Assembly (NCBI GenBank): GCA_020348445.1
Contig: CP070751.1
Coordinates: forward strand, 4,032,662-4,096,661
Source: Thermoplasmata archaeon
GTDB lineage: Archaea > Thermoplasmatota > Thermoplasmata > GCA-020350865
Reading direction: 5' to 3'
DNA: 64,000 nt
Position 1 is the stretch's first letter. Every line of letters begins with the position of its first letter. The translations under genes and the position numbers were made by a program. Below are positions 50,744 through 63,211 of this stretch, in pieces. The notes below the pieces were generated by a model. That model had not been told where the DNA came from. It saw only the letters and a program-made list of their open reading frames with translations, and made no database searches.

Positions 50744-50873
50744 TGGGGCCGCCGAGATTTGAACTCGGGTATCCAGCATTTCGTATCATTTTCGAAACCG
50801 AGTTATTTTCCGGGAACTCGGTACTCAACGAAACCCCAAGCTGAGAGGATTGTCCAAGCTACCCTACGGCCCC
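50744..50873 (-). tRNA. tRNA-Pro(GGG) with a 55-nt intron at 37/38 (50779-50833); CCA not encoded
   Basis: GGGGCCGTAGGGTAGCTTGGACAATCCTCTCAGCTTGGGG[intron]TGCTGGATACCCGAGTTCAAATCTCGGCGGCCCCA folds as a 75-nt cloverleaf. Confidence 0.9.
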
Positions 50874-60899: not shown

Positions 60900-62069
60900 A
60901 TGCCTAGAATCGATGAGAAAAAACTAATTAATATGATAAAGGAAAAAGGACAATCCTGGAAGGCAGGCAGGACATCACTTTCAGAGCTTCCTTTCGAGGA
61001 GCAGAAAAAGCGCCTAGGACTCGCCGTAAAAAAAGAAGATTTGGAAAAGATGCGTCTGGAAATCAAGGCGGCTGTTAAGGCTTTCTCGTTTCCACAGGAA
61101 TGGGATTGGAGAAATGCACGCGGGAAAAACTGGACCACATCCATAAAGGACCAATCCTCCTGTGGATCATGCGTTTCATTTGCCGTTTGTGCAGTTATGG
61201 AATCCATGATGAAGATCGAGGAGGATAAACATGATTTGAGCATAGACCTCTCTGAAGCGCATCTCTTCTTCTGTGGATGTGGAAGATGCTGCAATACCGG
61301 CTGGACCTTTGAGCCCGCACTCGATTATGCCAAAGGCGACGGCATATCTGATGAAGCATGCTTCCCCTATAGGGCCACAGATACCAACTGTAACGAAAGA
61401 TGCAGTGATTGGGATAAGAGATCCTCGAAAATAACAGAATGGAAGAAGATAACAAATGTGAGCGAGAGAAAGAACGTGCTCTCAAGTGTAGGACCGCTTG
61501 TGGGAGGAATGGCTGTATATGAGGATTTCTTTTCCTACCGAGGCGGAGTTTACAGGCACGTTACTGGAGATTTTGCTGGATATCATGCAATTGCAATCGT
61601 GGGATTCAGCGAGAGCGAGCAGTGTTGGATCTGCAAAAACAGTTGGGGTTCTGGCTGGGGTGAGAACGGCTGGTTCAAGATAGGTTATGGTGAATGCGAT
61701 ATTGATACTACATTCCCAATGTACAGCGTCACGGGGATCGTTCCTGCACCTCCGCAACCTCCACAACCTGAATGTCTCATAGCCACTGCGGCTTATGGTT
61801 CTGTATTGTCACCTGAAGTTCAGTTTTTAAGGGACGTGAGGGACAACATCGTAAGAAAAACAGAGAAGGGAAACAAGTTCATGGACGACGCAGAATACGT
61901 CTACTACAAATTCAGCCCTCAGGTCGTTTACCACATGAAAAGGAGTAAAAACTTTAAAAAGTTTGTTCGTTGGACAGTGGTTGCCCCCTTCGTCTATTCT
62001 GTGTACGGGATTATGAGGGTATTAGTGGATGACGAGAGGTTGGACAAATACAACCTTGATGAAACATGA
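60900..62069 (+). CDS. Papain-family (C1A) cysteine protease with C-terminal CFI-box-CTERM-like domain
   Basis: QSSCGSCVSF (Cys), GYHAI (His), KNSWG (Asn); Pro-rich linker then CLIATAAYGS. Confidence 0.9.
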   Translation: MPRIDEKKLINMIKEKGQSWKAGRTSLSELPFEEQKKRLGLAVKKEDLEKMRLEIKAAVKAFSFPQEWDWRNARGKNWTTSIKDQSSCGSCVSFAVCAVMESMMKIEEDKHDLSIDLSEAHLFFCGCGRCCNTGWTFEPALDYAKGDGISDEACFPYRATDTNCNERCSDWDKRSSKITEWKKITNVSERKNVLSSVGPLVGGMAVYEDFFSYRGGVYRHVTGDFAGYHAIAIVGFSESEQCWICKNSWGSGWGENGWFKIGYGECDIDTTFPMYSVTGIVPAPPQPPQPECLIATAAYGSVLSPEVQFLRDVRDNIVRKTEKGNKFMDDAEYVYYKFSPQVVYHMKRSKNFKKFVRWTVVAPFVYSVYGIMRVLVDDERLDKYNLDET

Positions 62070-62391
62070 AGAAAAGAATTTTGGTGATCATCTGAAAATT
62101 TTATCTGAGGACGAAGAGTCCATAGAAATAGCCTGTAGCGAGGAATTCACAATCACTTTGGATTCAAATCCAACCACAGGATATGTTTGGAAGGCGGAAT
62201 TCGATGGGAATTATATTGAGCTCCTTGGAAAAACGTTTGAGCAACGATCAAGTGGGATCGGCTCAGGGGGAAAGGAGAATTTCCAATTTAAGGGGGTGAA
62301 AGATGGCGAGACAAGTATTAAAATGATATGCAAAAGAACCTGGGAAGATGAACCCATAAAGACAAAATCATTCCTGGTGAGTATTAAGTAG
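62059..62391 (+). CDS. Chagasin-family (I42) cysteine-protease inhibitor
   Basis: SNPTTGYVW and GSGG loops; overlaps the protease stop codon. Confidence 0.9.
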   Translation: MKHEEKNFGDHLKILSEDEESIEIACSEEFTITLDSNPTTGYVWKAEFDGNYIELLGKTFEQRSSGIGSGGKENFQFKGVKDGETSIKMICKRTWEDEPIKTKSFLVSIK

Positions 62392-62583
62392 ATGAAAGGG
62401 GGTCGAAACTGGGGGTTTATATATTTTTTGCAAAAAATAGCTTTTATTTATACCATTTTATTAAACTCAGCGAAATTAAAACTCGAATATCGCAGATAAC
62501 ATGTAAGAGCTATCTATTAACCAATAAATTTAAATACGTGAAAATAATTATGGTCAGGTCACCTTAAGTGTTATGGAAATAAT

Positions 62584-62809
62584 GGGCCCGTAGCTCAGCT
62601 AGGTAGAATATTATGATAAAATGGAAAAGTGTGAGCCATGAATATATTCCTAGAAAGAGCATCTGGCTTTTAACTGAACAATCTGGCGGTATAGAAAGTA
62701 GTAAGGACTAACAGCCGAGACCGGGTTTTTCGGCAGGAAACCAGGTGGTCGGGGGTTCGAAAAGTCTCGCCCCGATTGGAGCGGGAACTCGAAATTCCCC
62801 TCGGGCCCG
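62584..62809 (+). tRNA. tRNA-Lys(UUU) with three introns (20/21: 62605-62655; 37/38: 62673-62739; 59/60: 62762-62795)
   Basis: Removing the three inserts gives a 74-nt cloverleaf: GGGCCCGTAGCTCAGCTAGGT|AGAGCATCTGGCTTTTA|ACCAGGTGGTCGGGGGTTCGAA|TCCCCTCGGGCCCG. Confidence 0.9.
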
Positions 62810-62950
62810 TTTCCAAAATTCGCTGAGACGAAAGGACATGTGGTAGGAAAAGGTGTGGTGAGAAAATAGAAGTATGGTTTTGAAAAAGAGTCATGATAAC
62901 AAGATTGAAAAAACGTGGGCAGATCGATTACAAAAATAGGGGGCTTGCTA

Positions 62951-63211
62951 ATGGTAGATGTCAATGTTATGTTACATGAATTGGTACCCGAGCACACACT
63001 TCTTTCTGAAGAAGAAGCTAAGAAGGTTTTAGAAGGTTTAAAGATCAAAGTGGATCAGCTTCCCAAAATAAGAAAGGACGATCCAGTTCTTAAGATTTTG
63101 GAGATGGTGGAGGGTGAAATTACGGAAGGGCGTATCATAAAGGTCACGAGGAGGAGCGAATCTGCAGGTGTGAGTGTAGTATACAGAATGGTTGTAGAGA
63201 GGGTGAAGTAA
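62951..63211 (+). CDS. rpoH: RNA polymerase subunit Rpo5 (H)
   Basis: HELVPEH, QLPKI...DP, TRRSESAG...YR.V; start set at ATG 62951. Confidence 0.95.
   Translation: MVDVNVMLHELVPEHTLLSEEEAKKVLEGLKIKVDQLPKIRKDDPVLKILEMVEGEITEGRIIKVTRRSESAGVSVVYRMVVERVK

Follow-up and report, generated by a model that had tools for sequence, protein, structure and literature searches.

A three-intron tRNA-Lys(UUU) gene in uncultured Thermoplasmata and a tRNA splicing endonuclease without the known specificity loops

Introduction

tRNA genes interrupted by three introns are textbook features of the Thermoproteales. The stretch of DNA analyzed here (hereafter, the window: 64,000 nucleotides, positions 4032662–4096661 of a single 5.16-Mb contig with 41.5% G+C) comes from an uncultured member of the class Thermoplasmata, and the closest public relatives of the proteins encoded around the locus of interest are from genomes labeled “uncultured Thermoplasmatales archaeon”. 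An earlier note, made from the sequence alone, described a tRNA-Lys(UUU) gene split by three introns near the end of this window. The locus raises two questions, namely whether it is a genuine and functional gene, and how its introns could be removed in a euryarchaeal host. Three introns per gene is the known archaeal maximum, recorded in Thermoproteales, and the phyla named as intron-rich are Crenarchaeota and Thaumarchaeota (PMC8450103); Pyrobaculum calidifontis, for example, carries 71 introns in 46 tRNA genes, with as many as three in a single gene (cited in PMC8450103). The earlier note knew of no triple-intron tRNAs in Thermoplasmatota, and a literature search of incomplete coverage likewise found no paper on multi-intron tRNA genes, or on D-loop or T-loop tRNA introns, in Thermoplasmata.

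Structure of the tRNA-Lys(UUU) gene

Positions 62584–62809 of the window hold a tRNA-Lys(UUU) gene in four exons separated by three BHB introns, at 20/21, 37/38 and 59/60 (Table 1). The joined exons give a 74-nt RNA that ARAGORN calls as tRNA-Lys(ttt) with a full cloverleaf: stems of 7 bp (acceptor), 4 bp (D) and 5 bp (anticodon and T), discriminator G, and no stem mismatch. The introns were delimited by the archaeal rule of a 4-bp central helix, two 3-nt bulges and cleavage 3' of the second bulge base; for introns 1 and 2, where a one-base slide of the boundary leaves the mature sequence unchanged, it is this rule that sets the boundaries. A script written for this analysis finds all six bulges to be 3 nt long, with 4 of 4 central-helix pairs in introns 1 and 3 and 3 of 4 in intron 2. 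The coordinates, intron lengths, intron positions, helices and 74-nt cloverleaf given in the earlier note are all exact.

In introns 2 and 3, the motif is flanked by a helix on either side, as in the hBHBh' form, of which intron 3 is a strict example. The inner helix of intron 2 (CTGAA/TTCGG) comprises 5 bp and its outer helix (7 bp) is the anticodon stem; in intron 3, an inner helix of 3 bp is combined with the 5-bp T stem as the outer helix. Intron 1 is of a different kind: it has no contiguous outer helix, as A14 and G15 stay unpaired opposite the 3' bulge. Because these two bases separate the D stem from the central helix, the 3' cut site lies in a 2x3 internal loop and not in a clean bulge. 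When the 226-nt precursor is folded without constraints, the acceptor stem forms again, together with the helices of all three introns (-79 kcal/mol, z = -3.1).

Table 1. Features of the tRNA-Lys(UUU) locus (window positions) and other interrupted tRNA genes of the same genome (genome positions, marked g)
Feature	Positions	Strand	Description
Likely BRE and TATA box	62521..62536	+	CCAATAAATTTAAATA; ~55 nt 5' of the tRNA; kept in 4/4 genomes of the genus, flanks diverge
Exon 1	62584..62604	+	Acceptor 5' strand, U8, D-stem 5' strand, D loop to 20; (near-)identical in 109 orthologs
Intron 1	62605..62655	+	51 nt, D loop 20/21, relaxed HBh'; central CTAG/CTAG, bulges GTA/AAA, inner GAATAT/ATATTC (6 bp)
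Exon 2	62656..62672	+	A21, D-stem 3' strand, anticodon-stem 5' strand, loop CUUUUA including anticodon UUU
Intron 2	62673..62739	+	67 nt, canonical 37/38; central CTTT/CAGG, 3/4 pairs (one G-U), bulges TAA/AAA
Exon 3	62740..62761	+	Position 38, anticodon-stem 3' strand, variable loop, T-stem 5' strand, T loop to 59
Intron 3	62762..62795	+	34 nt, T loop 59/60, strict hBHBh'; central TTCG/CGAA, bulges AAA/ATT, inner AGT/ACT
Exon 4	62796..62809	+	Position 60, T-stem 3' strand, acceptor 3' strand, discriminator G73; CCA unencoded
rpoH	62915..63211	+	RNA polymerase subunit H, Rpb5 C-terminal domain; Pfam PF01191, E = 5e-26
132-aa ORF, spurious	62650..63048	-	No Pfam family; overlies the tRNA and rpoH, two conserved genes on the opposite strand
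tRNA-Arg-CCG	679353-679501 (g)		Second three-intron tRNA; introns 29, 23, 23 nt
tRNA-Met	328769 (g)		Two introns
tRNA-Glu-UUC	668241 (g)		Two introns
tRNA-Val-UAC	2191957 (g)		Two introns
tRNA-Val-CAC	4300906 (g)		Two introns
tRNA-Gly-CCC	2879725 (g)		Single 59/60 intron
tRNA-Cys	5002829 (g)		Single 59/60 intron
tRNA-Arg-GCG	5061849 (g)		Single 59/60 intron
tRNA-Met, probably initiator	151025 (g)		Single D-loop intron
tRNA-Thr-GGU	5066819 (g)		Single D-loop intron
tRNA-Ser-GCU	5072067 (g)		Single D-loop intron

Detection of the gene and the need for splicing

The earlier note suggested that standard annotation may miss this gene, and two common tools indeed do so. The unspliced gene is called neither by ARAGORN, on the window and, with the intron option, on the whole genome, nor by Rfam, on the window under both gathering and E-value thresholds and, with the tRNA model, on the whole genome. 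A purpose-written scanner that looks for cloverleaves with optional introns, with the products verified by ARAGORN, finds 44 tRNAs at a score of at least 4, six of which are multi-intron genes at a score of at least 6, compared with no valid tRNA parse at a score of at least 4 and no multi-intron parse in the reversed (not complemented) genome. At least seven tRNA genes of this genome escape ARAGORN and Rfam, and apparent gaps are to be expected when the tRNA sets of these metagenome-assembled genomes are compiled with common tools.

A search of the whole genome with four approaches, ARAGORN with introns, the Rfam tRNA model, blastn-short with the spliced sequence as the query and the scanner, detects no second tRNA-Lys(UUU). 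In particular, no intron-less copy, which the earlier note named as part of what would speak against its reading, was found in the unmasked genome; 35,300 bases are masked, and another tRNA-Lys could in principle hide there. Under permissive scoring, “Lys ttt” parses appear at 1761316, 3004171 and 4784168; these vanish under stricter scoring and overlap real tRNAs (Ala-GGC, Trp). The two other tRNA-Lys genes of the genome both have the anticodon CUU, one at 2800753-2800906 and one inside a cluster of 21 tRNA genes (4640570-4643566), which was considered as a source of tRNA-Lys(UUU) and contains Lys(CUU) only. A tRNA with C34 does not read AAA, and in a set of 1031 long ORFs this codon has a frequency of 27.0 per 1000. 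Given this demand and the single tRNA-Lys(UUU) found, the gene must be expressed and spliced and must give a working tRNA. Very probably, the locus is functional and this organism has no other tRNA-Lys(UUU) gene, with splicing predicted from the sequence.

Two minor observations concern the CUU genes. The tRNA cluster (minus strand) packs about 21 tRNA genes, mostly intron-less, into 3 kb, and a 420-nt gap in it contains an HNH-endonuclease-like ORF (positions 1464-1913 of the extracted locus, L017); it resembles a tRNA array carried by a virus or mobile element. Just upstream of the other tRNA-Lys(CUU) gene, there are two 16–18 nt copies of a tRNA-Lys 5' end, 94% identical (2800970-2800987 and 2801054-2801069, minus strand), which may be leftovers of integration at this gene.

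Orthologs across the class

A DNA search with the whole locus, introns included, detects 76–79% identity in three genomes of the same genus. For a survey at greater depth, rpoH, the conserved downstream neighbor located about 100 nt 3' of the tRNA gene, was used as a tRNA-independent anchor and searched in 150 further genomes of the class; upstream DNA was taken from 113 genomes, the present one included, and the four exons were located by fuzzy matching. A tRNA-Lys(UUU) gene is found upstream of rpoH in 109 of the 113. All three introns are present in 30 genomes from 12 families (f1, f2, f7, f9, f12, f15, f20, f21, f22, f25, f27 and f29), and one or two of them in another 55: the D-loop and T-loop introns in 37 genomes (f3, f4, f5, f11, f16, f23, f24, f26 and f28), the D-loop and anticodon-loop introns in 5 (f17), the T-loop intron only in 10 (f10, f3 and f16), and the D-loop intron only in 3 (f13 and f11). 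In all these 85 genomes, the introns occupy exactly the same positions. The remaining 24 genomes (f6, f14, f18 and f19), Thermoplasma among them, have no intron; this group presumably also takes in Aciduliprofundum and Methanomethylophilaceae. In family f8, where nine genomes yielded an rpoH match, tRNA-Lys(UUU) was not found upstream of rpoH in the four genomes fetched. One unpublished genome (G097) is present only in the tallies of the rpoH-anchor and EndA surveys. In a genome of the same genus that consists of a single 3.2-Mb contig and is apparently closed (G001), EndA is present, and neither rpoH nor a full tRNA-Lys locus was found; this region may be masked or missing.

The earlier note inferred intron invasion for one lineage; the gene is not special to it, with all three introns present in orthologs from 12 families of the class. 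Jointly with the functional reading given above, and with equally high confidence, the three introns are best regarded as old, shared features of an orthologous gene in much of the class and not as a recent event in the present genome. With orthologs that carry 0, 1, 2 or 3 introns, this gene offers clean material for the study of gain versus loss of archaeal tRNA introns.

Covariation in the splice motifs

The introns of the orthologs range from 19 to 104 nt, and outside the splice motifs their sequences have diverged, with central helices paired in 82–100% of cases. Covariation was assessed in 72 (D loop), 34 (37/38) and 70 (T loop) distinct introns anchored on the splice sites. In the D-loop intron, the central helix is 94–100% paired, with two-sided changes at position 2 (TA in 59, CG in 12) and position 3 (AT in 67, CG in 5). 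These changes fall exactly where the D loop of the exon differs (CTAG to CCAG or CCGG); for example, the exon change from CTAG to CCAG is matched by the compensatory change from CTAG to CTGG in the partner strand. In the T-loop intron, the central helix is 96–100% paired and the outer helix 100% paired. The inner-helix positions of all three introns show four to six pair types with 59–100% pairing. Controls in which the partner strand is slid are clearly lower, mostly 15–60%, at variable, informative positions; where a column consists of repeated bases, as at some positions of the central helix and at some first positions of the inner helix, they equal the observed values. Compensatory changes support the intron helices. 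The two outer positions of the D-loop intron are unpaired in all 72 distinct orthologs, which indicates that the relaxed 3' side is itself conserved.

Splicing enzymes

The genome contains a single EndA locus, a 362-aa ORF (genome positions 548043-549128, minus strand) in which PF02778 and PF01974 each match twice, i.e., two tandem N-terminal-plus-C-terminal repeats. The KYG, EHA and VKKE motifs that align with the catalytic residues (Tyr/His/Lys) of the Methanocaldococcus jannaschii enzyme are present in the C-terminal unit and missing in the first one. By sequence, therefore, this is a single two-unit polypeptide of the alpha'2 type. The best match among solved structures is the fused Methanopyrus kandleri enzyme (5X89, E = 5e-39, full length), followed by weaker matches to the alpha'2 enzymes of Archaeoglobus fulgidus and Thermoplasma acidophilum. 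Examination of this EndA for the L1/CSL, L2/ASL and L3 inserts reveals none: the catalytic unit aligns with that of M. jannaschii (1A79) without insertion, and it has neither the ~10-residue crenarchaeal loop (A. pernix 3P1Z_B, S. tokodaii 2CV8) nor the inserts of the ARMAN-2 enzyme (4FZ2). The catalytic unit is equally insert-free in 19 relatives from the class (a 20th row, G060, is a wrong-frame ORF and was left out). The proposal of a relaxed EndA, made in the earlier note, thus finds no support in the sequence of the sole enzyme, which is devoid of the known broad-specificity loops. The RtcB ligase is encoded by one gene (E = 6e-180).

In the 150 further class genomes, a long EndA (~350–370 aa, 39–84% identical over nearly the full length) is found in every intron-bearing family and in f6. 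The f10 enzymes are shorter, at 334–349 aa, and align in two pieces in two of the genomes; f14, f18 and f19 have short forms of 289–327 aa that align only partially. A strict link between the long enzyme and the introns was considered and rejected, given that f6 combines the long enzyme with an intron-less tRNA-Lys. In one genome of the class, EndA matches PDB entry 2OHC, the T. acidophilum enzyme, over all 289 residues (654 bits), which identifies the class as Thermoplasmata. The EndA described here resembles that enzyme of the same class in carrying a structural unit ahead of a catalytic one in a single polypeptide, and differs from it in length (362 aa against 289 aa with a cut-down structural unit), so that the two align only over the last ~85 residues; the T. 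acidophilum genome, unlike the present one, has an intron-less tRNA-Lys(UUU). In several genomes of f11 (e.g., G104, G139 and G125), the EndA-containing frame spans 540–617 aa owing to a long arginine- and proline-rich N-terminal extension, which may be an artifact of high G+C or real.

A predicted splicing pathway and the relaxed D-loop intron

The proposed pathway would start with transcription from the BRE/TATA promoter about 55 nt upstream, yielding a precursor of about 250 nt. EndA would then recognize the three BHB motifs independently of the tRNA body and make six cuts, each after the second bulge base; RtcB would join the four exons; and the ends would be trimmed and CCA added, given that the gene does not encode it. 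This scheme builds on the anatomy of the gene, the sole copy found, the covarying conservation and the presence of one EndA and one RtcB gene; splicing itself, the order of the cuts and the promoter are its predicted parts.

The difficulty lies in intron 1. According to Kaneta et al. (2018), relaxed introns are removed only by loop-bearing (alpha-beta)2 and epsilon2 enzymes, and “Cluster II” Euryarchaeota encode only alpha'2 enzymes (PMC5829648). That the sole EndA is without the loops tied to such motifs in that work counts against an EndA pathway for the D-loop intron. The general requirement for a broad-specificity enzyme stated in the earlier note stands for this intron and falls for introns 2 and 3, which are near the strict motif and need no relaxed enzyme.

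The locus shares with the Thermoproteales up to three BHB introns in the D, anticodon and T loops, bulge cuts that give a cloverleaf, and genes missed by standard finders; in contrast to their (alpha-beta)2 heterotetramer with the crenarchaeal loop, a euryarchaeal host with a single two-unit, loop-less EndA is involved here. The closest single precedent for intron 1 is the intron at 20b/21 in pre-tRNA-Glu(UUC) from M. kandleri, a relaxed HBh' intron accompanied by a canonical 37/38 intron; in vitro, it is excised poorly, albeit at a level above zero, by the A. fulgidus and M. kandleri enzymes, both of them loop-less (PMC5829648). Common to both cases are a D-loop intron between 20 and 21 whose 3' side is disrupted, a 37/38 intron and a loop-less endonuclease. 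However, M. kandleri has two introns, in a single gene of one species, compared with three introns here and many tRNAs in many families, and in the present case a single gene naturally carries the structural unit fused to the catalytic one. Korarchaeum cryptofilum also combines a single-polypeptide two-unit EndA with multi-intron, non-canonical tRNAs (PMC3239211); its catalytic unit, unlike the insert-free one described here, has the L1 loop and clusters among (alpha-beta)2 enzymes (PMC5829648). Asgard archaea, too, are described as having hidden introns that standard annotation misses and that often lie in an enlarged D loop, in a preprint that does not mention Thermoplasmata (bioRxiv 10.64898/2026.10.13.758758); that is another phylum, and the Asgard enzymes carry the L1 loop (PMC5829648).

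One way to accommodate these facts is that much of the class keeps relaxed D-loop introns in essential tRNAs (among them the initiator and the sole Lys-UUU) with a loop-less EndA that suffices on its own; this reading is tentative, though a serious possibility. If EndA alone does remove these introns efficiently, its broad substrate range would have an unrecognized structural basis, for which the complete structural unit, cut down in Thermoplasma and Aciduliprofundum, would be one candidate, and a whole euryarchaeal class would break the accepted rule by which disrupted tRNA genes are allowed only by (alpha-beta)2 and epsilon2 enzymes with a loop.

Alternatively, the gene would be real, and removal of the D-loop intron would require more than the bare EndA dimer, i.e., contacts with the tRNA body or an unknown helper protein. 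In the first variant, a partly folded tRNA body would keep A14 and G15 out of the helix (through U8-A14 and G15-C48) and thereby let the D stem stack onto the central helix. The interruption of the outer helix in 72 of 72 distinct D-loop introns, the missing L1, L2 and L3 inserts and the inefficient in vitro cutting of the comparable M. kandleri intron by loop-less enzymes (PMC5829648) all speak for such help; on the other hand, the published cutting, however inefficient, was above zero, and the long two-unit EndA is also found in f6, with its intron-less tRNA-Lys. We view this alternative as possible, if somewhat doubtful.

Other interrupted tRNAs and the question of intron invasion

The tRNA-Lys(UUU) gene is not the only gene of this genome to be interrupted at unusual positions (Table 1). 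At least 13 tRNAs have introns outside the anticodon loop, and the scanner results, inspected by eye, amount to at least eight T-loop (59/60) and at least seven D-loop introns. These numbers, with two three-intron and four two-intron genes in one genome, speak for a recent invasion by mobile introns, allowed by a relaxed EndA of a known type (with a specific loop, (alpha-beta)2 or epsilon2), in the sense of the intron invasion proposed in the earlier note. Nevertheless, the same three positions are occupied in the orthologs of 12 families, and the sole EndA is a single two-unit gene without a known specificity insert. In addition, a search of the genome for identical introns in other tRNAs, suggested in the same note, detects no other copy of the three Lys introns at E = 0.1 or better, so that there is no sign of recent transposition; C/D-box motifs are not evident by eye in these introns either. 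Recent invasion is accordingly an improbable and largely refuted explanation. Least credible of all is a decaying or non-functional tRNA gene with the insertions kept in, which would explain why standard tRNA finders give no call but is at odds with the status of this locus as the sole Lys(UUU) gene found in an AAA-rich genome, with four intact exons without a stem mismatch, and with splice motifs conserved with covariation across 85 genomes.

This tRNA gene with three introns is genuine and essential and belongs to a known kind. The novelty lies in the place of occurrence, as such genes are common in uncultured Thermoplasmata, where the three-intron layout is the norm in many families, and in the pairing with an EndA that, by the current model, should not cope with one of the introns. 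The literature ties three-intron tRNA genes to loop-bearing endonucleases; here, the enzyme is loop-less and the tRNA is essential and single-copy. The accepted picture of coevolution between tRNA introns and EndA derives from cultured Thermoplasma, where both the introns and the long enzyme are lacking, and needs to be revisited for this class.

Surroundings of the locus

The conserved block upstream of the gene (Table 1) is likely its archaeal promoter, as judged from its BRE- and TATA-like sequence; TATA-like boxes are also present at -50 to -65 in other families. The ORF track of the earlier note was said there to overlay the tRNA gene with spurious ORFs, and the 132-aa ORF on the minus strand, without a Pfam match, does look spurious.

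Several further observations were made in and around the locus. In the window, TGGAAA (62574-62579) could pair with TTTCCA (62810-62815) around the tRNA-Lys(UUU) gene. In family f15 (loci L029, L032, L036 and L045), the tRNA-Lys 5' leader (CCGAGACCTCAGA...) is complementary to the 3' trailer (TCTGAGG...CTCGG), which suggests a putative processing helix around the tRNA in this family. Just upstream of the tRNA gene, at 60900-62391 (plus strand), a gene for a papain-family cysteine protease is directly followed by a gene for a chagasin-family (I42) inhibitor. Elsewhere in the window, at 50744-50873 on the minus strand (4083405-4083534 of the genome), there is a tRNA-Pro(GGG) gene with a 55-nt anticodon-loop intron, which is missed by ARAGORN on the window and wrongly called as Phe by ARAGORN with introns.
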